Shown here one piece after another: positions 36,397 through 57,449 of a stretch of DNA of 64,000 nt; the stretch's first letter is position 1, and each line of letters begins with the position of its first letter. This stretch comes from a virus. The position numbers and the translations under genes are program-made. Location of the stretch: positions 64,001 to 128,000 of IMG/VR virus record IMGVR_UViG_3300020057_000029; one strand, 5' to 3'. The notes beneath the pieces are model-generated. The model saw only the letters and a list, made by a program, of their open reading frames with translations. It was not told the DNA's origin and made no database searches.

Positions 36397-38169
36397 ATGT
36401 CATTTCGCAAGGCAAAAAGCGCACCTAAAATTTTTGAAGTAAACCCTAGTAGGCTCAGGAATAAGGTTTTAAGCACTATGCACCGTGTTTCCGAAGCGGT
36501 TGGCTCAACTATGGGTCCAGGCGGTAGAAACGTATTGATTGAATCAGACTTTCCAGGTATTCCTAACAAAAACACCAAAGACGGAGTGACTGTTTTTAAG
36601 AGCCTTGGTGCTATTGACCCATACGAACATCTTATCATAGAACAAGCCCGTGATGTGGCTCAACGTACTGCTACTGAAGCTGGCGATGGTACTACCACGG
36701 CAACCGTGCTCGCGTACAATATCATCTCTAATTTATTCGAATTCTGTGAAAAAAACAAGAAGTACAGTCCTCAAAAAGCTGCTCGTCGCATCGCTAAAAT
36801 AACACGCGAACGCCTTGTCCCTTATATCAAAGAGCGCAGTATCCCTGTTGGAGTAGACAATCAAGAATTACTCAAAATGGTAGCCAAGGTATCCGCCAAT
36901 GGCGATGAAGACATGGCGGCTGCTGTAATTAAGGCCTTTGAAGAAATTGGATACGGAGACGCCTCTCACGTAACAATCCGAGAACTATCAGGCCCTCAAG
37001 GCTATAAAGTCGAACGTATCGACGGATTCCCCATTCCTGCTGGCTATGAAGAGTCTATTGGCAAATTTCACACTGCCTTTATTAATGACCAAGCAAATCA
37101 ACGTTGTTTTCTTGAGAACCCCCTGTTTATCCTGTTTGACGGTCAGGTAAACGATCTCATGGCGTTCCACGATCTTCTAGACGTTCTTGGTAAAAAATAC
37201 GTAGAAGACGGCGACAGTGATTATAAAAACGTTGTAATCGTAGCTCATGGTTTTTCTGAAAACGTGCTCACAAATCTTGCTTTCAACTTCTCAAACCCCT
37301 CTACCCTGAACGTTGTGCCCCTGGTTACCCCAATGGCTCAATTCATCAATAGCCAGCTTCAGTTTCTGCAGGATTTAGCCGCTTTTACCGGCTCTCGCGT
37401 ATTCGGCATGAAAGATCAGATCAATACTGCTACTATTGCCGATTTAGGCGGCAGCATGGAATCTTTTGAGTGCTATCGTTTTCGCTCCACTGTGATTGGT
37501 GATCCAGACCCAACCAATATTGAGGTTCGTGCTGAAGAGCTTAGAATCATGAAAGATCGTTCTGAAAGTCAAGCTGAGAAGATCTTCTTAGAAGAGCGTA
37601 TTGGTAAGATCACTAACGGTATTGCTAAATTAACCATTTACGGCGGATCTAACGGCGAGCTCAAAGAAGCGCACGATCGCTGCGAAGACGCGGTATGTGC
37701 GGTTCGTTCTGCAATTTCTCACGGTGCTCTACCAGGTGGATGTCGTATTGCCCTAGACATGACAATGCTGCTTATGACCGAACTAGAAGCAGGTGACCCA
37801 GCCCGTGACGTTTTAGTGCCTTCTTTGTTAAGCCTACATCACAAACTGCTCGACAATGCTGGATATACTCCAGCCGAATCTAAAGAAGTTTTGGAAATCC
37901 TTTTGAACGATCCTTCTATCGTATATGACATTGAGAATCAGGTTTACGGTGACGCAAAAGAATTAGGCCTGTTCGATGCTACAAAGGCTGTACAAGAGTC
38001 CTTGTCAAACGCAGTATCTCTTGCGAATGTGCTTGGAACAATGGGCGGCTTAGTATGTCATCCTCGTGATGATGTTTTTGAACGGACAGAGGCTAGAGCA
38101 GATGCTGACTTTGGCCGTGTAACCTCCAACCCAAATGCGTACGTTAATGAAGCTAATAATCGCCCATAA
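36397..38169 (+). CDS. groEL: Phage-encoded GroEL-like chaperonin
   Basis: TMGPGGRNV, TKDGVTV, AGDGTTTATVLA, EDAVCA, LPGG. Confidence 0.92.
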   Translation: MSFRKAKSAPKIFEVNPSRLRNKVLSTMHRVSEAVGSTMGPGGRNVLIESDFPGIPNKNTKDGVTVFKSLGAIDPYEHLIIEQARDVAQRTATEAGDGTTTATVLAYNIISNLFEFCEKNKKYSPQKAARRIAKITRERLVPYIKERSIPVGVDNQELLKMVAKVSANGDEDMAAAVIKAFEEIGYGDASHVTIRELSGPQGYKVERIDGFPIPAGYEESIGKFHTAFINDQANQRCFLENPLFILFDGQVNDLMAFHDLLDVLGKKYVEDGDSDYKNVVIVAHGFSENVLTNLAFNFSNPSTLNVVPLVTPMAQFINSQLQFLQDLAAFTGSRVFGMKDQINTATIADLGGSMESFECYRFRSTVIGDPDPTNIEVRAEELRIMKDRSESQAEKIFLEERIGKITNGIAKLTIYGGSNGELKEAHDRCEDAVCAVRSAISHGALPGGCRIALDMTMLLMTELEAGDPARDVLVPSLLSLHHKLLDNAGYTPAESKEVLEILLNDPSIVYDIENQVYGDAKELGLFDATKAVQESLSNAVSLANVLGTMGGLVCHPRDDVFERTEARADADFGRVTSNPNAYVNEANNRP

Positions 38170-38184
38170 TGATACAATTGATAA

Positions 38185-39618
38185 ATGAGCAAAAGGACAG
38201 ACATACAGATAATTAGACAGTATGTAGAGAAAAGAGGGTTTTCTCTATTGTCCAATTCTTACAAAAACAGAAAATCTGATCTTGATCTGCACTGCCCTGT
38301 TCATGGTAATTTTACCTCTACTTATAGCAACATCATACGGACCAGTATATGTCCCAAATGCGGCTATAGTTTTGGTGGTAACAAACAATCTCTGTCTCTG
38401 GAACACGTCAGGTTAGAAATAGTCAAAATGGGCTATGTCCCATTGTTTGACTCCTACAAAAGGGCCAAAGACAAACTGGAGATATCGTGTTCTTCCCATG
38501 GCAAATTCTTTGCAAGCTACGACGGCTTAAAACAAGGCAAAAGATGTCCAAAATGCAGTCTTATTTCTAAGACAAAAAACAACAGACTTGACATAGAAGA
38601 AGTAAAAAATAGAATAACAAAAGCTGGCTATTTGCCAAAATTTGAGTCTTACAGCGATTCTCAGTCGCTATTAAGCGTTGTGTGCCCTGTTCATGGCCCT
38701 TTCAAGGCGTCTTTAGAGAGATTTATGTATGGATACGGATGTCAAAAATGCTCTAAGGGAAGATCCAAATCTCAAGACGAGATGTTTGATTTTATACACA
38801 GTCTGAATGCAGACACTAAAGAAAATGTCAGAGACGTTATCGGCCCACTAGAGCTAGATGTCTATACGCCGTGCCTGAATTTGGCCATAGAATACTGTGG
38901 ACTTTATTGGCATTCCGATCTGTATAAAAATAGAAATTATCATTTCGACAAAATGACAATGACCAATACTGTAAATATTCGTCTCATAACAATTTTTGAA
39001 GATGAGTGGTTAGAACGCAAAGATCAGGTAAAAGGATTTCTTCGATCTGTATTGAAAAAGAATAATAGAAAAATCTTTGCTAGAAAAACAAACCTTAAGC
39101 AAGTAGGAAAAGCAGAAGCTTGTAAGTTTCTTGAAGAAAATCATATTCAAGGGTCTTGCGGTCTAGAAGTCGCTTTTGGCTTGTACTGTAGGGATGAGCT
39201 TGTAGGCGTAGTCACTGGCAACAGGCATCACAGGAATATTAAAGCAAATCAGCTAGTGCTCAACAGACTAGCCTTTAAATCAGGCATTAGCGTGACCGGT
39301 GGTTCTTCCAAGCTTTTGAGAGCCCTAATGGAATACTCTAAAAACAATGATTATTCCAAAATAGTTTCTTGGTCTGATAACAGATGGTCCGAAGGCAATG
39401 TTTATAAAAAGCTAGGTTTTGAGTTAGAAGAAGAGTTAGCGCCAGACTATAGCTACGTGAAAAAATCAAAAAGAGTGTCTAAGCAGTCTATGACCAAGAA
39501 CAAGTTGATTGAGCGGGGTGCCATTGGTAATACTGAAAGAGAAATGGCTATCAATCTAGGCTATGGCAGAATTTGGGATTGTGGAAAGAAAAGGTGGGCT
39601 TTAAAGTTAAAAAGATGA
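38185..39618 (+). mobile_element. Free-standing homing endonuclease (CxxHG Zn-ribbon repeats, Vsr-like/PD-(D/E)xK core, GNAT-like C-domain)
   Basis: 3 x C..HG...C.KC; ELDVY...AIEYCGLYWH; IFEDEW; RIWDCGKKRW. Confidence 0.75.
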
Positions 39619-39779
39619 ACCACGTATGATATAACCTAGATAACATCCCTGCTTTCTTTGATCTGATTGGTAAGCTTCAATGATTCATGACGAAAAACCT
39701 CTTTTAGAATATCGCAACAAATGGAGAACGCAATTCCTCCCCATGCCTAATGAGCGGGGTTTCCTTGCGTGAAAATTAA

Positions 39780-40589
39780 ATGATCAATTTTAAAGACTTA
39801 CCTCCTGAAGAGAAAAAAGCCTTAGCGGAAGAAATGTTCAAACCTCTTGAGTCAGCTGACAAACTAAGAGAATGGATCGTATTCTTCTTTGGTCTTGACA
39901 TGCCAATTGGACATATTGATCCAGATTCGAATTCCAGTCCAATTGAGGCAATGTGGGAGATCTACTCCTGTATTAAAGAAAATAAAGGTGAAGATAATCC
40001 TGGTTACATCATGCTTTCGGCGCGGGAAGGTTATAAAACGCTTTCTGCCTCCATTCTAGAAACCCTTCTTTTGGTACATTTCAGACTAACCATCGCTCAC
40101 CTGGCAGCGATTCAGGCCCAGTCTGCTAAGGCTATTCAGTATATCAATTTCTTTTTCAACAAAATCCAACCTCTTTTGGAAGTATCGGGTTGGTCTAAAA
40201 CCAGTGAAAACAAGAGTAAGGTAAGCTTTCGTACAAAAGAAGGCGATGACGCTTACATTCGCGTAATTGTGGCCACGATGGCTGGCGCTAACTGTATAGA
40301 TCCTGCTATGGTGCTTGATACAGACAGGGGCAATATTTCCGCTCAAGAAGTATATGATTTGGTCAGAAACAATGAATGCGTAATGGTCCTGTCTTTTAAC
40401 CATAAAACAAATGAGTTGGAATATAAAGAAGTCACCCACACATTCGACTCTATCAAAACTTTAGTCACGATAGAATTAGAAAATGGGTCAATTATCAAAT
40501 GTTCTCCTGAACACAGGTTTTACATAGAAGGCAAGGGCTATATGGAGGCCAAGGATTTGACTGAAGAGGATTATTTAAGTGTCAAATAG
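39780..40589 (+). CDS. terL: Terminase large subunit N-fragment plus split intein N-half (IntN 40293-40586, 98 aa)
   Basis: Walker A-like SAREGYKT; GAN|CIDPAM...IELENGSIIKCSPEHRFY...EAKDL then TAG. Confidence 0.88.
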   Translation: MINFKDLPPEEKKALAEEMFKPLESADKLREWIVFFFGLDMPIGHIDPDSNSSPIEAMWEIYSCIKENKGEDNPGYIMLSAREGYKTLSASILETLLLVHFRLTIAHLAAIQAQSAKAIQYINFFFNKIQPLLEVSGWSKTSENKSKVSFRTKEGDDAYIRVIVATMAGANCIDPAMVLDTDRGNISAQEVYDLVRNNECVMVLSFNHKTNELEYKEVTHTFDSIKTLVTIELENGSIIKCSPEHRFYIEGKGYMEAKDLTEEDYLSVK

Positions 40590-40765
40590 ACCGACAAGAC
40601 ATGACCTAGAGTTTGCGAGGGCGTCGGTGCGCAAAACAGTCTTGTAAGAAAAAGAGCTTGCTGATCAAAGGCGCTACAGGAAACACAGGGACAGAGATGG
40701 CCTTATCTTTAGGGTATGACCGCATCTGGGACTGTGGAAAAATAAGATGGGAGATTTTCTTGTGA
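40579..40765 (+). pseudogene. Internally deleted homing endonuclease relic
   Basis: 40631-40765 encodes AKQSCKKKSLLIKGATGNTGTEMALSLGYDRIWDCGKIRWEIFL*, closely matching the C-termini of ORFs 38185 and 55746; 5' stub MSNRPTRHDLEFAR in another frame. Confidence 0.85.
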
Positions 40766-42228
40766 AAAAAGTAAAGATAAAAAGTATTAAAAGGTCAAAC
40801 GTAGAGGTTCCAATGTTGGACTTTACCGTTGCTGATAACCACAACTACTTTGTGGAGCAGGCGCTTACTCACAATTCTGAGCATACAAACATGATGTTCG
40901 TAGACGAAATCGACGTGGTGGCAAATCCTCAAGCCTATGAAGAGGCTAAGCTCATTCCTGGTTATGCTAAGGGATTACATCCGGTTACCGTGAAGCTATC
41001 TACTCGTAAATTTGCATTTGGACTCATGCAGAAGGAACTTGACCTGGCTCCAATATCAGGTGATAAGATTCTTAGGTGGAATCTTTTAGATGTTACGGAG
41101 CGTTGCCCTGATAGTCGCCATAGGCCAAATGAGCCAAAAGAAGACCGGTATGTAGCAAAAGCCTTGCCTCTAAAACAGATGAGTGTAGAAGACTACTCAG
41201 ATCTACAAGATGTGGAAAAGGACAAGTTCGACCTCATTCCGCAAGCCCATGCTGGATGCTCCAGTTGCAAACTCTTGCCGGTATGCAAGACCAGGCTAGC
41301 AGCTCGTCCAGCCAATGATGTTGGCGGCTTGTTTAAGCCCGTAGGCGCTGTGATTAACACTTTTAAGAAGACCGGCCCTGATCGCGCAGAGGCACAGCTT
41401 CTTTGCTGGAAGCCATCCACTAAAGGAATGGTGTACCCTCGCTTTGAGTCCACACTCGATACCGGCAACGTGATCAGTCTTGAAAAAGCCTGGGAAACCC
41501 TTGTTGGTGATCCTCCTCATAAAAAGAAGATTTCAGAAGCCGATCTTCTTTGGAAGATGCAGCAGCTTGGAATTGCATTCTACGCTGGAGTGGACTGGGG
41601 TTATACTCACGATTTCGTAATCGTTGTTTTTGCCATAATCCCTAATGGTGAAATATGGATTGTAGACTGTTATTCAATGGCCGGTCTAGAATTTTCTGAC
41701 ATCTTGGAAATCGCTAAAGACTATCGCGATAAGTACCGTATGGATAAATGGTGGTGTGACCAGGCTATGCCTGCGAATATCAAATCTTTTAACAAGAACC
41801 ATATGAAATCTCCTTCTTTCACCAAAGATGTTATGGGTGGAATTGAATCTTTGCGTTCTAAGATCTTAGATGGTAACAGCAGGCGTTTGCTTAAGGTTTT
41901 TAATACGGAAAACTGTGAAAAAGTAATTACAGCCTTTCAAAAACACCATTTCAAGCTAGACAGTGCGGGTAACCCTTCTCTTATCCCAGATGATACCCCT
42001 GGGGTCGCAGATAGCGCCGATGCTATGCGTTACGTTGGCCAAAACATGTTTCCTATCCGTGGACCCCAGAAACCCAGTATGGCCGCTGACGCTACTGGGA
42101 ATACTGCTGTAATGGTTCAGAATGTCGAAAATTCCGAGCTGATGAAGCAGGAGCTATTAAACAGGTTAGAGGGAACAGCTTTTAAGGGCGGGACGGGCAA
42201 AAAAGGTGGGTTTCATTTTAACTTCTGA
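40762..42228 (+). CDS. terL: Split intein C-half (38 aa) plus terminase large subunit C-fragment
   Basis: GTG start after GGGAG (alternative ATG 40747); KKVKIKSIK...LDFTVADNHNYFVEQALTHN|S; Walker B MFVDEID; nuclease GVDWG and DSADAMRY. Confidence 0.88.
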   Translation: MKKVKIKSIKRSNVEVPMLDFTVADNHNYFVEQALTHNSEHTNMMFVDEIDVVANPQAYEEAKLIPGYAKGLHPVTVKLSTRKFAFGLMQKELDLAPISGDKILRWNLLDVTERCPDSRHRPNEPKEDRYVAKALPLKQMSVEDYSDLQDVEKDKFDLIPQAHAGCSSCKLLPVCKTRLAARPANDVGGLFKPVGAVINTFKKTGPDRAEAQLLCWKPSTKGMVYPRFESTLDTGNVISLEKAWETLVGDPPHKKKISEADLLWKMQQLGIAFYAGVDWGYTHDFVIVVFAIIPNGEIWIVDCYSMAGLEFSDILEIAKDYRDKYRMDKWWCDQAMPANIKSFNKNHMKSPSFTKDVMGGIESLRSKILDGNSRRLLKVFNTENCEKVITAFQKHHFKLDSAGNPSLIPDDTPGVADSADAMRYVGQNMFPIRGPQKPSMAADATGNTAVMVQNVENSELMKQELLNRLEGTAFKGGTGKKGGFHFNF

Positions 42229-42266
42229 CGCAATCTTAACTGTAATAGCTTATAGGAGGCTTTCGA

Positions 42267-43211
42267 GTGTCTAAATTTAATTTATTATTCTTTCTCAATG
42301 CTTACAAAGACGCTGCCTCTACAAACCAGCCAAATTTCCAGAACTTCAAATGGAGTAGGGAAATCAATGGCCTATCAGCATCAAAGCCTTTAAGTCAAGA
42401 ATTAAGCCTAGCTCCAGGTGAGTCTAAGACCGTCTTTGATGGCACCAGAGCTTTGTCCCAGGACGGCAGCACTGTCTACTCTTTGGCCTTAAAAGTCGGC
42501 GCATCCTCTATTTATGTTCTTAAGCACATTTCTGGCACTGCACCTGCTTTTCGTACAGCTCGCAGCTCAGCAGCTGACGCTACAACTCAAATAACAGTGA
42601 CTCAAAACGGTCCACTATTGATTTTTACATCGACTGGTGGCACAGCCCTTAGCCTGATCGCTGGCGGCGCTGTGGTTGGCGACTACGTTCGTCTAGGCAG
42701 CCTTTTTGATGTCAACAACCAAGGCGAATGGAAAATATTAGCCTTAACAGCCACCAGTCTTACTGTAAAAAATGATATTGGTGTTGCTCAGGGGCCAATC
42801 ACTCTTGCTGCTGGTTTTGATGATCAGCTTCGTGTTTACGGGGCCTTGGGCGTACAGGTAGATGACACCCTCAATATCACTGGTGGATTTTCAATTATAA
42901 GCCGCGATGCTTATAAGATCACTGCCGTTTCTGACAATCTTGTAGAATTTTCCAGTCTTGAGGTCTTGCCAACAGAAGCAAGTGTGACCACCAATGCTCT
43001 AGCTATTTACTCCGCTGCTAAGCAATTTGTATATTTAGAAACATCTGAAAAGGTTTCTCTAATTATCAACGGGATAGCAACAGGAGATGTTGAACCTTTC
43101 TTGGTAGGTAATAAGCCTGGTATTTTTGTTAAAACCGCAACAATGTGGTCTTTGGCTATCACAAATCAAAGCACTGATCCAGCATCTGTTTACGTTGCTG
43201 CAATTGAATAG
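42267..43211 (+). CDS. Probable virion structural protein
   Basis: AGGAGG RBS; beta-rich G/A/T/S composition; lies between terL and portal. Confidence 0.55.
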   Translation: MSKFNLLFFLNAYKDAASTNQPNFQNFKWSREINGLSASKPLSQELSLAPGESKTVFDGTRALSQDGSTVYSLALKVGASSIYVLKHISGTAPAFRTARSSAADATTQITVTQNGPLLIFTSTGGTALSLIAGGAVVGDYVRLGSLFDVNNQGEWKILALTATSLTVKNDIGVAQGPITLAAGFDDQLRVYGALGVQVDDTLNITGGFSIISRDAYKITAVSDNLVEFSSLEVLPTEASVTTNALAIYSAAKQFVYLETSEKVSLIINGIATGDVEPFLVGNKPGIFVKTATMWSLAITNQSTDPASVYVAAIE

Positions 43212-43250
43212 TTTGGTCAAAAGCGACATGATTACGATATAAGGTAGAAT

Positions 43251-45122
43251 ATGGACAATGACAACAAAACTCCAGACCAAATAGAAGCTGCAATTGTTGC
43301 TTTGCAATCTGCTGTAGCCTCAGTCGATTCTAAAAAGAAGATGTTGTTTACCGTTTCTGATACAGAAGAGGCTACCCTTGCCAAGGGTGGCTATGAAAGC
43401 TCTAGCCCCATATCGCCCTTGCTTGCTGCTATTAAAAGTGCTTCTGGTTCTGCAAGCAGGAAAGCCCCTCGTTTAGCTTTTACTGAAAACCCAGCACCTT
43501 CTGACAATTATCTTGGTCTGTTCAAATCCAAGCGCAGGCTGGTGCCTGATGAGATTTTAAAACAAATTCGCGTAACCGATCACTTGATCGCTGCTATCCT
43601 ACGTGCTCGCGGCAACATGATGAGCCTATTTGGCCATCCTCGTAAAAACAGATTTGATATAGGAATGGAAATCGCTATTAAACAGGAGTTTGAAAAAGTC
43701 TTTACTCCAGAGCAATTGGCCAAAGTACGAATGCGTATCAAGAATCTTGAGGCAGTACTCGTCAACTGTGGACACACAGAAGGTCTTGAACAACAAGATA
43801 GGACCACATTAGCTGATTTTATAGATATTCAAGCTCGCAATGGATTGACATTTGGTCGTTTTGCTACTGAGATTATTTATGATCGCGGAGAAGAACCAGG
43901 CTCTGATGGTCGTTTTCCATTTTTCCGGTTTCGCGCTCTAGACGTTGCTACTATTTATCGCGCTGTTCGCAAGGGTGAAATGCTAGGAAACACACTGCGC
44001 CTAACCGCAATCAAAGCTCTTCAGTCCTTGACTGGTGAGAACTTTAAGATTGACTTTGACAGGCTTCAAGAAGACGAATATGCTTGGCTACAGGTAATTG
44101 AGGGAACCCCTCGTCAAGCCTTTACGCATGATGAGATGATTGTTTACAATCTTTACGATTCTACCGATATCGAACACAATGGCTATCCAGTATCGCCAAT
44201 GGATACTGCGATCAGTTCTATTACTACCCATATTTCTATCGATGCCTATAAAAAGCTCTATTTTCAAAACGGTCGTGCCTCTAAGGGTATGCTTGTGATC
44301 AAATCTGATGAAGTAGATCAGGCTACACTTGACAACATGAAGCTTCAGTTCAACGCTTCTATTAATAGCGTAAGTAATTCTTTCCGTACTCCTATTTTTG
44401 GTATTGGAAAAGAAGACCAAGTTGACTGGTTGGCGATGAATGAGGGCGCTCGTGACGACGACTTCCAGTTCATGTACGATCAGATTGCTCGTAACATTCT
44501 TTCTGCTTTCAATATGTCTCCTGACGAGCTTCCTGGCTACTCACACCTTTCTCGTGGTACTAACTCGCAGACCCTATCTGAATCAAATAACGAATTCAAG
44601 CTTACCGCTGCTCGTGATACTGGTCTACGTCCTTTAATCTTGAAGTTCCAGACCTTCTTTAACGAAAAGCTTCTTCCTTTGATTGACCCTTTGCTTGCAA
44701 AAATTGCAGAGGTTAGGTTCGCTGGCATTGATGCTCAGTCCAAAGAGCAAGAGTCTACTCGATTACAGCAAGACATGGCTGTACACATGAATTACGACCA
44801 GACCTTAAAAGAAGTAGATAAAGAGCCTATCGGACACACTCTTGGTGGCGAATTCCCTTTTAATGAGCGTTGGCAGATTATTATAGACAAGTACATGAAC
44901 GTTTCTGAGCTTAGGGCTCAGTTCTTCAAAGATCCTACTGCTTACGTAGATCCCTTGCTACAATATAAAAGAGATCCCTTTTTTCTACAGAATCTACAAT
45001 TGTTAGCCCAAGTAAACCCACTTGCCCTAAAAGCTTTTTATGCGACTAAGCCTTTTGCCCTAGAATTCTTAAAAATGAACATCGAAGACGCCTTAGAAGA
45101 AGACGAAAACGTAGGAACCTAA
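43251..45122 (+). CDS. Portal protein
   Basis: GYPVSPM, YFQNG...GML, DDFQF...IARNILSAFNMSPDEL, GLRPL; follows terL. Confidence 0.85.
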   Translation: MDNDNKTPDQIEAAIVALQSAVASVDSKKKMLFTVSDTEEATLAKGGYESSSPISPLLAAIKSASGSASRKAPRLAFTENPAPSDNYLGLFKSKRRLVPDEILKQIRVTDHLIAAILRARGNMMSLFGHPRKNRFDIGMEIAIKQEFEKVFTPEQLAKVRMRIKNLEAVLVNCGHTEGLEQQDRTTLADFIDIQARNGLTFGRFATEIIYDRGEEPGSDGRFPFFRFRALDVATIYRAVRKGEMLGNTLRLTAIKALQSLTGENFKIDFDRLQEDEYAWLQVIEGTPRQAFTHDEMIVYNLYDSTDIEHNGYPVSPMDTAISSITTHISIDAYKKLYFQNGRASKGMLVIKSDEVDQATLDNMKLQFNASINSVSNSFRTPIFGIGKEDQVDWLAMNEGARDDDFQFMYDQIARNILSAFNMSPDELPGYSHLSRGTNSQTLSESNNEFKLTAARDTGLRPLILKFQTFFNEKLLPLIDPLLAKIAEVRFAGIDAQSKEQESTRLQQDMAVHMNYDQTLKEVDKEPIGHTLGGEFPFNERWQIIIDKYMNVSELRAQFFKDPTAYVDPLLQYKRDPFFLQNLQLLAQVNPLALKAFYATKPFALEFLKMNIEDALEEDENVGT

Positions 45123-45123
45123 T

Positions 45124-45903
45124 ATGAGTGAAATCAATTACAAAGTAAAATACGAACAGATTAAGCTTAAGTTCATGAGCTCCGTAGATATGGCCTTCCG
45201 TCTTGGTTATGAAAATGGCCAAAAAGATTCTCAGACGGAAATGGCTGCTGGACAACAGCAAGCCGCTGAACAACAGGCTCAACAACAATCTAACGCTGAG
45301 GCAAATGGTTTTGGTGGCGGCGAGGGCGATGATTCCGATTCCGATGGAGATGGAATGGGCGATGCTCTTCCTGGTCAATCTGGGATGCCTGGTGAAGGCG
45401 ACAGTGAAGACCCTAACCAAGACCCCAATATGGGCGGTGCTGGACAGCCTGGACAGCCTGGACTAGATGGTTCTGAAGCTGATCCTGAAGCTGCTCCAGT
45501 TGATGGTTCTGAGCTGGATTCTCACATTTCTCAACTCGAACAGATGACTATGGGAAAATCTGAAGTATCCGTAGAACAGCTCAAGAAATCTTTGATTGGA
45601 ATCAAACGTTTCAAAGAGGCTCGCGACCTTCACAAGTCTATGAATGCCATCAAACAGATCGGCAATACCATGAAAAAATCTACAAAAAAACATGCTAAGA
45701 AAATGAGCGGTTTAAAACCCACATTTAACGTAAACGCTAACAAACAAGCGGCTGCAAATCTTACCGACAAAGATAAAGCGGCAATCAATGGTCAAGAAAA
45801 AATCGTAGCAGATATCATGAAATCTTGGGATGAACAAGACAAGAAATCTACCAAGAAGATCACTGACATCCTCAATATCGAAGGTTTGACAAAAAAAGAA
45901 TAA
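45124..45903 (+). CDS. Head-associated low-complexity protein with several xxKS sites
   Basis: G/D/Q-rich linker; MGKS, LKKS, LHKS, MKKS, IMKS. Confidence 0.6.
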   Translation: MSEINYKVKYEQIKLKFMSSVDMAFRLGYENGQKDSQTEMAAGQQQAAEQQAQQQSNAEANGFGGGEGDDSDSDGDGMGDALPGQSGMPGEGDSEDPNQDPNMGGAGQPGQPGLDGSEADPEAAPVDGSELDSHISQLEQMTMGKSEVSVEQLKKSLIGIKRFKEARDLHKSMNAIKQIGNTMKKSTKKHAKKMSGLKPTFNVNANKQAAANLTDKDKAAINGQEKIVADIMKSWDEQDKKSTKKITDILNIEGLTKKE

Positions 45904-54200: not shown

Positions 54201-55586
54201 ATGATCGAACAACTTCAGTCACTTATGAAAGCTCTTGAGGCCGGTAGTTACAACGCCGCCCCAGGTCAGCTTGCGCAAGGTGCTGCTTTAATGGTGGAAG
54301 ACCTTTCCCCAGTAATGCAAAACGTAACGTTTGACGACAGCCATATCAAACTTCAAAAAATGCTAACTAGCAAAGATGTAAAAGCTACAATGCATCAATT
54401 CAACCGTCAACTTGACTATGGAATCTTCGGTGGTTCTGCTCAATTTGAAGGCGGCATTGGTGAAGAAGATACCTCGAACTACGTTCGTGCTATCGTTCCC
54501 ATGGCCTATTACAGCACGACTCGTCGTGTTTCTGTTGCTGCTAACCTCATCGGTGCTTTCGACGGCGTAAAAGCTGAAGACCGTGCTGCTGCTGACGCTG
54601 CAATGAAACTTGCTGGCGATATCGAATTCGACTGCTTCCGTGGTCAATCCGATTTCTCAAACGCTGGTGTGTTTGACGGTAACCCTCTCGCTGTAGCGAA
54701 AGTGCCCAATATGATTGGACTTGACCAACAAGTTCGTCAGTCGGACGCTCAACAAAATACGCAAGATCTTATGTTTGCTGAGTACGGCTCAGACCAAACT
54801 GTAGTACTCTCTGCTGGTGGCGCTCTAACCCAGTCCATCATCGAAGATTCCGCAGTTCGTAGCTCTATGAACATGGGTAATGCTGATAAGCTCGTTCTCG
54901 ATCCTATCAGTCTCTCTGCATATAACAAGATCGCCCACGCTAAAGAACGTATCATGCTCGCTGGCTCTGCTCAAGAAGCTTCCGGCGCTCACTTACGTAC
55001 TCAGTGGACCTCTTCGGCTATCGTATCACTTGAAGCTTCGCGCTTCTTGAGTGGTAAGACTCGTCCTGCTCGCGCTCGCGCATCAGCTCTCGCTGGTCCC
55101 GCTATCGCTGCTGCTGACGCTGGTGCCGCTGGTTCGCTCTTGGCCGCTGCTGCATACGTATACTATGCTACTGCTGTTAATGAACGTGGCGAAAGTACTC
55201 CTGGTGCATCTAGTTCTGTAACCCCTGCTCTTGCTGGTAACAAGGTCAATGTGACCATTACTGCAGTAGCTGGAGCTAAGTACTACAACTTGTATCGATC
55301 TGCCGCTGGTGGAAATGCAGCTTCTGCAAAATTCATTGGCAAGATTGCACAAGGTTCTGGCAACCCTGTATTCGCGGATCTTGGTAACCGTTCCCCTGGT
55401 TCTGTTACTGGTTTCTTGATTCAAGGTAACACCATGGGTCTTGCTCAGTTGGCTCCATATAGCAAATTGAAATTGGCTGTTAGTGACCTCTCACTTCCTG
55501 AGGCACACTTCAGATTCCTTTCTCTTGCTGTATACCAACCTCGCAAAAACGTTCTGATCGAGAACATTGATGGTCAACTTAGCTAA
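54201..55586 (+). CDS. Major capsid protein with an Ig/FN3-like insertion
   Basis: LMKALEAG, AALMVEDL, IEF..F.G, GL..Q; insertion YVYYATAVNERGES...YNLYRS resembles SPO1/Twort-type MCPs; strong terminator follows. Confidence 0.85.
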   Translation: MIEQLQSLMKALEAGSYNAAPGQLAQGAALMVEDLSPVMQNVTFDDSHIKLQKMLTSKDVKATMHQFNRQLDYGIFGGSAQFEGGIGEEDTSNYVRAIVPMAYYSTTRRVSVAANLIGAFDGVKAEDRAAADAAMKLAGDIEFDCFRGQSDFSNAGVFDGNPLAVAKVPNMIGLDQQVRQSDAQQNTQDLMFAEYGSDQTVVLSAGGALTQSIIEDSAVRSSMNMGNADKLVLDPISLSAYNKIAHAKERIMLAGSAQEASGAHLRTQWTSSAIVSLEASRFLSGKTRPARARASALAGPAIAAADAGAAGSLLAAAAYVYYATAVNERGESTPGASSSVTPALAGNKVNVTITAVAGAKYYNLYRSAAGGNAASAKFIGKIAQGSGNPVFADLGNRSPGSVTGFLIQGNTMGLAQLAPYSKLKLAVSDLSLPEAHFRFLSLAVYQPRKNVLIENIDGQLS

Positions 55587-55745: not shown

Positions 55746-57449
55746 ATGAAGGATAAAATATCAGAACTGTATAAAAAAGGTGTGAAAACATCAGATATAG
55801 CCATGGTTCTAAGGAAAACGCCTCAAAGAATTAATCAAGTGCTGATAGAGCTTGGCTTAAAGCAAAAAACGTTTGACTATTCGCCAAAAATAACTGCTAT
55901 CATTGCTGAAAGCATTCTTGCTTTTAATAGAGATGGTCTGACCGTAACTGAAATATCAAAAAGGGTTGATCTAACAACCACTGGAATCAGAAATTTTCTT
56001 AAAAAACGTAGTATTTCAACAAACGCATCCAAAGAAGACAGGTCTAGGCCTTGTGTTGTTTGTAAATTAGTGTTCACTCCGAAACACTCAGATGGGGTGA
56101 AAAAAAACAAATACAAGACTTGCTCTGTCGAATGTCGCTCTAAGCACGCTAGTGAATACAGAACGAAATATACAAAAGATGATATCGATAAGGTTTTAGA
56201 GCTAAAAAAGGCCAATACTGCCAATGATGAGATTTGCCTGGCAACAGGGGTAAATATAAATAAGATCAAAGAGGTGATCAAAGAAAATGCCTTGTTTTTG
56301 GACCCAAAAGTGGCTCAAAAGAATGCTTATGAAGCTAAGCTAAAAAAGAATACTCGTTCTATGGAAGAGATGCGAGCTTATTACGGAAAAATAGCCGTAT
56401 CAGAAGAAAGTCTTGAAAAAACAAAAACAATTCTTTTGGAAAGGGGTTTTGAATATATAGATGGTTTTGAGGGCAAAAGCAATCCTTTTAAAATCAAATG
56501 TCTAGTCTGCAATAATATCAGAACTACACATAGGATAAACAATGTGGTCAAAAACGCCTGTATGTTCTGTTCTGGATGTAAAAAAACTTCCAAAGCCGAA
56601 ATAGAAATTGGGGCATGGGTAAACTCTTTAAAGATAAAGGCTGAAAAATTCAAGTTTGAATACCGAAAAGATGGTGGCGAAATAGATGTTTTTGTTCCCC
56701 TTGTAAAGGTGGGAATAGAATACTGTGGTCTTTATTGGCATAACGAAAATAGCCCAACCTCAAGAGGGGTGGATTATCATTTCAACAAAATGAAAAAGGC
56801 TAACAAAGAAGGTATTCGCCTAATAACCATTTTCGAAGACGAATGGCTCAATAAAAAAGATCAAATTAAAGGATTTTTACGATCTGTTCTTAATAAAAAT
56901 GAAATAAGGCTTTTTGCCAGAAAAACAGATTTGAGAGAGGTGCCTAAAAAAGAGGCCTCTCTTTTCTTAGAGGAAAATCATATCCAGGGTTCTTCTCAAA
57001 TCGAATCGGCTTTTGGCCTTTATTACAACGAAGAGCTTGTTGGTATTGTAACTGGCAACAAACATCACAGACAGGGAATGAAAAATCAATTCATACTGAA
57101 TCGATTGGCCTTTAAAACAAACGTAAGTGTGGCTGGTGGTTCGTCTCGGCTTCTTAAGGCGCTAATTGGTTATGCTAAAAAGAATGGCTATTTAAAACTA
57201 GTCTCGTGGTCAGACAATAGGTGGTCCGAAGGTAATGTTTACGAAAAACTAGGGTTTGTATTGGAAGAAACCCTTGGCCCAGACTATTCTTACGTAGTTG
57301 GCCAAAAAAGAATCTCCAAGCAATCTTGTACCAAGGAAAACTTGCTCAAAAAAGGAGCCATTGGTAACACAGAAAAAGAAATGGCCCTCAGTTTAGGATA
57401 TAGCAGAATATGGGATTGTGGCAAAAAACGCTGGACCTTCGCCTTGTAG
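55746..57449 (+). mobile_element. Free-standing homing endonuclease, paralogue of 38185-39618 with an HTH-rich N-terminus
   Basis: EIDVF...GIEYCGLYWH, IFEDEW, RIWDCGKKRW; C-half closely similar to ORF 38185. Confidence 0.75.

Follow-up and report, generated by a model that had tools for sequence, protein, structure and literature searches.

A large terminase gene divided by a canonically split intein, with the remnant of a homing endonuclease between its halves: probable protein trans-splicing in a complete 155-kb phage genome

A large terminase subunit (TerL) can be recognized by a Walker A/B ATPase, a C-terminal RNase H-like nuclease domain and a portal gene nearby. All of these are found in IMGVR_UViG_3300020057_000029, a complete Mx1-like phage genome of about 155 kb, with the terL gene distributed over two open reading frames (ORFs); the question raised by this locus is how a single enzyme might be obtained from two genes. 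In this study, positions 64,001–128,000 of the record were analyzed (64,000 nucleotides, hereafter the window, to which all positions refer; labels of the L and P series, such as L020 and P0157, denote related contigs and proteins). An earlier note on this DNA had proposed that TerL is encoded in two genes joined by a naturally split intein, and all of its coordinates and sequence features proved to be present where it had placed them, correct to the base. The conclusion reached here is that terL is very probably a fractured gene, the TerL halves of which are rejoined by a canonically split class-1-type intein after the loss of a homing endonuclease gene (HEG). The anatomy of the locus, its exact boundaries, its family relationships and the HEG remnant with its intact counterparts are direct observations. 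The parts of the locus, including the N-terminal and the C-terminal piece of the intein (IntN and IntC), are as follows.

39780–40589, + strand: ORF1, 269 residues, consisting of the 171-residue TerL N-extein and the 98-residue IntN
40747–42228, + strand: ORF2, 493 residues, in a different frame from ORF1, consisting of IntC and the 450-residue TerL C-extein
39780–40292, + strand: TerL N-extein, residues 1–171, with Walker A at S80–T87 (nucleotides 40017–40040) and AGAN at its C-terminal end
40293–40589, + strand: IntN, 98 residues and a TAG stop, with the Cys1 codon TGT at 40293, block B S-P-E-H and an acidic C-terminal strand
40579–40647, + strand: 5' stub of the HEG, 22 codons, with a GTG start that overlaps the end of IntN and an MSN-like beginning
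40592–40765, + strand: 3' fossil of the HEG, its last 50–55 codons or so, in the third frame, with TGA at 40763–40765
40747–40875, + strand: IntC, 43 residues from ATG 40747 or 38 residues from the in-frame GTG 40762
40876–42228, + strand: TerL C-extein, 450 residues and a stop, with Ser+1 at 40876, Walker B M-M-F-V-D-E at 40891–40908 and the RNase H-like nuclease domain

The two ORFs are separated by a gap of 157 nucleotides that contains stop codons in all three frames, and the predicted spliced TerL has 621 residues (171 + 450). The exactness of the boundaries was established by comparison with intact relatives, an alignment that the earlier note had proposed as a check. The spliced product aligns from residue 1 to 621 with residues 1–621 of the nearest relative, the intact 621-residue TerL P0157 encoded on a 169-kb contig, without a gap and with 86.3% identity, and only one of the 40 residues around the junction differs between the two. 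At the DNA level, 39773–40293 and 40873–45895 are collinear with L027, and 40293–40875 is a clean insertion of 583 nucleotides comprising IntN, its stop, the gap and IntC; its removal restores the host protein in frame. TerL is uninterrupted in 15 IMG/VR relatives (42–68% identity), in which the match to the N-extein ends one base before the match to the C-extein begins; a 16th intein-less relative, L016, is cut short and retains the C-extein only. The N-extein is 81% identical to that of L019, 64–68% identical to those of the intein-less L002–L007 and 42–58% identical in L008–L017. The insertion motif, AGAN/SEH (the slash marks the point of insertion), is invariant and lies six residues before the Walker B strand, and it carries an intein in only about three of the 120 best TerL clusters. 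Judged against the empty alleles, the boundaries of the intein are exact.

That the host protein is the large terminase is indicated by several comparisons. The C-extein matches the PHROG terminase large subunit with E = 8.7e-14 and Pfam Terminase_6C with E = 2e-4, the latter slightly under the cutoff. The spliced product is 35% identical over 617 columns to the annotated TerL of Myxococcus phage Mx1 (E = 2e-109; 34.5% for the C-extein and 33% for the N-extein), and in this alignment the junction motif AGANSEH is matched exactly and without a gap. In a protein search of a collection of named phages, Mx1 TerL was the sole full-length relative (34.5% identity), and a DNA search of the collection gave no match. 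A sequence profile of the intact TerL relatives found no match in the PDB; a fold search with an AlphaFold (AF2) model of an intact relative, of modest quality (predicted local distance difference test score, pLDDT, of 63), matched the structures of D6E, T4 gp17 and HK97 TerL with E values down to 1.4e-9. As read from motifs rather than from a structural alignment, Walker A lies on ORF1, and Walker B, six residues past the junction, lies on ORF2 together with the nuclease domain; neither ORF product by itself would carry a complete ATPase site. The gene order is helicase, GroEL, terL, a 314-residue protein and portal, and it is common to L020 and L027, the portal gene being two genes downstream of terL. 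The GroEL-type chaperonin (590 residues, 36397–38169, PHROG E = 3.7e-82) adjoins the terL region upstream and is kept in the syntenic contigs L020, L021 and L027.

Hidden Markov models (HMMs) of inteins, a further check named in the earlier note, were run on both halves. IntN scored 28.9 bits against TIGR01445, the NCBIfam model of the intein N-terminal region, with a cutoff of 24.5. With Pfam Intein_splicing, IntN gave E = 6e-8 and IntC, matching the final 35 positions of the model (121–155), gave a weak E = 0.012, both being under the gathering score. IntN also matched the solved NrdJ-1 intein (8ubs) with E = 7e-9. IntC alone gave no significant match in the PDB; the contiguous (cis) orthologue from L020 was queried instead and matched gp41-1 (6qaz) with E = 2.9e-7 and NrdJ-1 (8ubs) with E = 7.5e-7. 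Both gp41-1 and NrdJ-1 use Ser+1, as read for the terL intein. Furthermore, the residues on which splicing chemistry depends are kept in relatives that have otherwise diverged: four allelic inteins, only 36–50% identical overall, all have Cys1, the block B His, the block F Asp, the terminal His-Asn and Ser+1, and the block B His recurs in each of the six allelic inteins examined. A Ser in block B is shared by L018 and L019 (other split forms with a separate IntN ORF), by P0009 and by the cis form in L020. IntN is 45–47% identical to the IntN sequences of L018 and L019, with all three ending at the same position, and the last 24 residues of IntC are 67% identical to those of L018. IntC can also be aligned with the C-terminal portion of the cis mini-intein in L020.

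The N-terminal nucleophile and block B of a class 1 HINT domain are thus present, as are blocks F and G and Ser+1; IntC has a basic, lysine-rich first strand, block F as D-F-x-V...N-H-N-Y-F and block G as T-H-N. The break falls between blocks B (N4) and F (C2), at the endonuclease-insertion loop, with the halves in separate ORFs, and it coincides with the natural split point of gp41-1 and with the short linker of the cis form in L020. Together with Cys1, the terminal His-Asn and Ser+1 at 40876, this bears out the earlier description of a canonically split, Ser+1 intein. The charges of the facing strands are complementary: IntN has a net charge of −9 overall and −3 over its last 20 residues, and the head of IntC has +5 over residues 6–20. 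The earlier description of a basic IntC holds for this first strand only, the remainder carrying −3 and IntC as a whole only +1 to +2. By its sequence, the terL intein is placed in the gp41-1/NrdJ-1 group of phage split inteins. A profile built from three IntN sequences found 2979 cluster representatives at E <= 1e-3, of which 321 remain at E <= 1e-10; as read from the table of matches, in roughly a third of the best 150 the match runs to the C-terminus of the protein, which points to a large intein family that is rich in split forms. No second IntN was found in the 155-kb genome by HMM search of its six-frame translation.

The intein and its host do not keep step in all comparisons. IntN of the window (40293–40586) is 46% identical to that of L019 (692–988), though the N-exteins are 81% identical, and in the comparison with L018 the identity is 47% for the N-extein and for IntN alike. 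Either the intein evolves much faster than the host TerL or it has been exchanged between lineages. Since the allelic inteins are only 36–50% identical, synonymous sites are saturated, and no polymorphism is offered by the identical contigs.

What the gap contains was resolved by comparison with split relatives in which the HEG is intact. In L018, the exteins of which are 47% identical to those of the window, an intact HEG of 532 residues lies between the halves and overlaps both the IntN ORF and the ORF for IntC and the C-extein; in L019, an HEG-type gene begins four nucleotides past IntN. The HEG proteins combine zinc-ribbon repeats (CapR/DUF723) with a Vsr-like core and, at the C-terminus, a Mom/GNAT-like domain. 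In the window, the translation of 40592–40765 (by tblastn) shares 60% identity with the L018 HEG at its C-terminus and 55% with a paralog that lies upstream of terL. The GTG at 40579 overlaps the end of IntN in the same position as the start of the L018 HEG, with weak similarity past the first few codons. Comparison of these two terminal remnants with the intact relatives indicates that about 1.4 kb of the HEG has been deleted internally; the breakpoint is resolvable only to about 40607–40632, where the stub and fossil frames are both weakly similar. The deletion spared the piece of the HEG that supplies the start of the downstream half: ATG 40747 sits within R-W codons of the HEG, inside a block of 21 nucleotides identical to L018, and the end of the HEG overlaps the IntC ORF by 19 nucleotides, as it does in L018 and in the contig that encodes P0158, a further split C-terminal half.

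Two intact HEG paralogs are also encoded in the window. The copy nearest to terL occupies the following position.

38185–39618, + strand: free-standing HEG paralog, 477 residues, intact, between groEL and terL

This paralog, like the HEG of the split relatives, consists of zinc-ribbon repeats, a core of Vsr-like type and a Mom/GNAT-like domain; it matches Pfam CapR, DUF723 and Mom as well as a PHROG homing/HNH endonuclease family (E = 1e-101) and is 33% identical to the L018 HEG. It is absent from the syntenic position in L027, which has an unrelated ORF of 188 residues there, and in L020, which has only a spacer of 177 nucleotides; it may mobilize the terL region by intronless homing. The second paralog, of 567 residues (55746–57449), lies directly downstream of the major head protein gene (54201–55586), and its C-terminal 330 residues share 55% identity with the upstream copy.

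Related contigs show the same insertion site in several other states. The site is empty in L027 and others; it is occupied by a cis mini-intein in L020, and by a more distant one in P0222; it carries a split intein with an HEG in L018 and L019, an in-frame fusion of IntN and HEG in L021 (P0054) and P0045, and, in the window, a split intein from which the HEG has been lost. The cis form (P0017, L020 5777–6187) is a contiguous mini-intein of 137 residues at GAN/SEH that is 45% identical to the window halves and has the same splicing blocks. It differs from the window form in being a single polypeptide, in which the equivalent of the IntC head is not a basic strand but a neutral to acidic one, and its TerL, unlike that of the window, also carries a LAGLIDADG intein in Walker A. 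In the fusion forms (L021 2455–4281, encoding P0054, and P0045), IntN has no stop and reads in frame into a Vsr-like HEG, the end of which is overlapped by the IntC ORF; the IntC head of L021 is acidic, not basic. A basic K-K-V-K-I-K head is common to the window (40762–40800), L018 and P0158, all of which are split forms that have IntN and IntC on separate ORFs and no HEG fused to IntN. The restriction of the basic head to such forms could reflect tuning of charge after fracture, in what is a small sample.

The cis intein with LAGLIDADG inside Walker A (GYK/T) was seen in P0017 (L020 4001–7531), P0009, P0045 and P0132. P0132 was considered as a full-length allele of the terL intein and was rejected, its intein being a different one that lies seven residues downstream in Walker B, at FM/CVDE. 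With inteins at GYK/T, GAN/SEH and FM/CVDE, there are at least three intein sites in the ATPase motifs of this TerL clade.

How the downstream half is translated bears on the interpretation. The earliest start available is ATG 40747, which L018 and P0158 also have and which has a poor Shine–Dalgarno (SD) sequence. GTG 40762 has GGGAG eight nucleotides upstream and aligns with a Met inside P0158. ATG 40813 was the choice of some automatic gene callers; only 21 residues of IntC would be left, and a functional IntC from this start is unlikely. No terminator-like site was found in the gap, which makes co-transcription of ORF1 and ORF2 plausible. Joining at the RNA level was also considered and was rejected, an Rfam search of 38000–42500 having found no group I or group II intron or other RNA.

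Several points weigh against the interpretation as a trans-splicing terL. Splicing and the expression of the halves are predictions made from sequence. The start of IntC is ambiguous among ATG 40747, GTG 40762 and ATG 40813; the matches of IntC to intein models are weak when it is taken alone (E = 0.012 and 0.24); and block B carries a Ser in place of the Thr found in most inteins. Furthermore, the contigs that reproduce the sequence apparently come from one sample series, so that the assemblies are independent but perhaps represent a single population. As regards these contigs, L022 and L023 are 100% identical to the window over 37280–43089, as are the shorter L024–L026 over their parts of this interval; together with one further contig, they are drawn from four Logan runs and two JGI metagenomes (six accessions).

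The rival explanations have to be judged against this record. One is that the halves dock through their intein fragments without splicing, giving a non-covalent two-chain terminase in which the intein is a dimerization module. Precedents exist among fractured phage genes, such as the nrdA of Aeh1, which is split by a homing endonuclease and assembled without splicing (cited in Dassa 2009 and in PMC3045599). However, all of the residues of the splicing chemistry are kept among inteins of 36–50% identity, which a docking module would not need, and a HINT domain of about 140 residues would stay lodged in the ATPase core, six residues from Walker B; this explanation is considered improbable. The sequence might, on the other hand, have been read wrongly, the true gene having a contiguous cis intein such as the mini-intein that exists at the same site in L020. 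The gap, however, is interrupted by stops in every frame, and its homology is to the ends of an HEG rather than to the linker of an intein; in L018 and L019, IntN finishes at the same residue; and the five other contigs from separate accessions are identical. An assembly error, which the earlier note had regarded as fatal to its proposal, is thus excluded as far as the data allow, and an artefact can hardly be entertained.

A claim somewhat greater than that of an artefact is made by decay, in which terL would be a non-functional gene in a defective phage or dead-end variant, the deletion in the HEG having crippled the expression of the C-terminal half. The HEG is clearly degraded, ATG 40747 is preceded by a weak SD sequence, and different gene callers place the start differently. 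Both ORFs are nevertheless fully open, and the exteins, at 86% identity to an intact TerL, contain no frameshift or stop; the deletion spared exactly the conserved block of 21 nucleotides that contains the IntC start; the 155-kb genome yielded neither a second gene copy nor a second intein of the terL type; and recurrence of the same sequence at 100% identity in five other contigs (six accessions) implies an abundant replicating population. Decay is accordingly given very little credence, and a terL rejoined by trans-splicing remains strongly preferred.

For the trans-splicing terL, the following course can be proposed, in which the history is taken from the relatives and the mechanism from class 1 intein chemistry and the behaviour of the characterized gp41-1 and NrdJ-1. 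A mini-intein of the gp41-1/NrdJ-1 group would have occupied AGAN/SEH and would then have been invaded by a free-standing Vsr-like HEG at the canonical endonuclease-insertion loop, giving two halves. An internal deletion of about 1.4 kb would later have reduced the HEG to a short 5' stub and its last 50 codons or so, including the start of the downstream half. Both ORFs would be co-transcribed, and the acidic IntN (−9) would associate with the basic first strand of IntC (+5) to form one HINT domain. Splicing would proceed by an N–S acyl shift at Cys1 and attack by Ser+1, after which the terminal Asn would cyclize, aided by the penultimate His, followed by an O–N shift. In this way, N171 would be linked to S172, giving a TerL of 621 residues with Walker A, Walker B and the nuclease on one chain.

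A more speculative extension, which is put forward tentatively, is that the locus is a natural end-state, in which loss of the HEG locked an essential terL into obligatory trans-splicing, with the last 50 or so codons of the HEG retained for the translation start of the C-terminal half, possibly with termination–reinitiation at GTGA, and with the allelic series serving as a test-bed for the evolution of affinity after fracture. If this were true, it might also yield a fast Ser+1 intein that is orthogonal to gp41-1 and NrdJ-1.

Comparison with known systems places the locus in an established class. Among 26 fractured loci, mainly from phages, Dassa, London, Stoddard and Pietrokovski (2009; PMC2677866) described the gp41-1, gp41-8, NrdJ-1 and IMPDH-1 split inteins, the halves of which are separated by a free-standing endonuclease gene of the GIY-YIG or Vsr-like type. 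In these loci, the 3' end of the HEG overlaps the start of IntC by 6–69 bp and provides the initiator Met, and loss of the HEG, as at the gp41-7 locus, forms step III of their model. As in their loci, the halves of the window intein are in order at one locus and the split is at the canonical endonuclease-insertion loop, IntN (98 residues) and IntC (38–43 residues) are within the ranges of 88–105 and 33–54 residues, IntN is acidic and the head of IntC is basic, and the 3' end of a Vsr-like HEG supplies the IntC start, here through the overlap of 19 nucleotides. The closest solved structures are those of gp41-1 and NrdJ-1, with low identity and E values of 1e-7 to 1e-9. The window departs from the core fractured-gene arrangement of Dassa 2009 in that the HEG is reduced to a 5' stub and about 50 C-terminal codons, two terminal fragments that form a visible footprint of its loss; in addition, the host site is AGAN/SEH of TerL, and the locus is in a complete 155-kb genome, whereas the loci of Dassa 2009 came from read assemblies.

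A terminase was already among these fractured genes (GOS-TerL; PMC2677866), and GOS-TerL, AceL-TerL and Cat-TerL are likewise naturally split phage TerL inteins that are expected to rebuild TerL by trans-splicing. However, in all three, of which Cat-TerL is a consensus, the split is atypical, with an IntN of 25–37 residues, an IntC of 104–122 residues and Cys+1, and GOS-TerL has Ser1 (Dassa 2009; PMC11766414), whereas the terL intein of the window has a canonical split (98 + 38–43 residues), Cys1 and Ser+1, and is of a different lineage. A literature search of incomplete coverage found no description of a TerL intein of this lineage with a canonical split. As a candidate ligation tool, the window intein adds to the split inteins of gp41-1/NrdJ-1-like type that have a Ser+1 junction. 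Its novelty as a tool, for which the earlier note had held out hope, is modest, gp41-1, NrdJ-1 and IMPDH-1 already being canonically split phage inteins and the family having 321 cluster representatives at E <= 1e-10; its value is incremental because many such inteins occur in metagenomes. Of greater consequence is that protein trans-splicing is probably required for an essential enzyme of virion assembly in a large phage with a complete genome, and that at its TerL site every stage in the published model for the evolution of split inteins can be compared among close relatives. The arrangement is a further example of the fractured genes recognized in phage metagenomes in 2009, at step III of that model, and is distinguished from them by the clear footprint of the HEG and by the allelic series at a single site.

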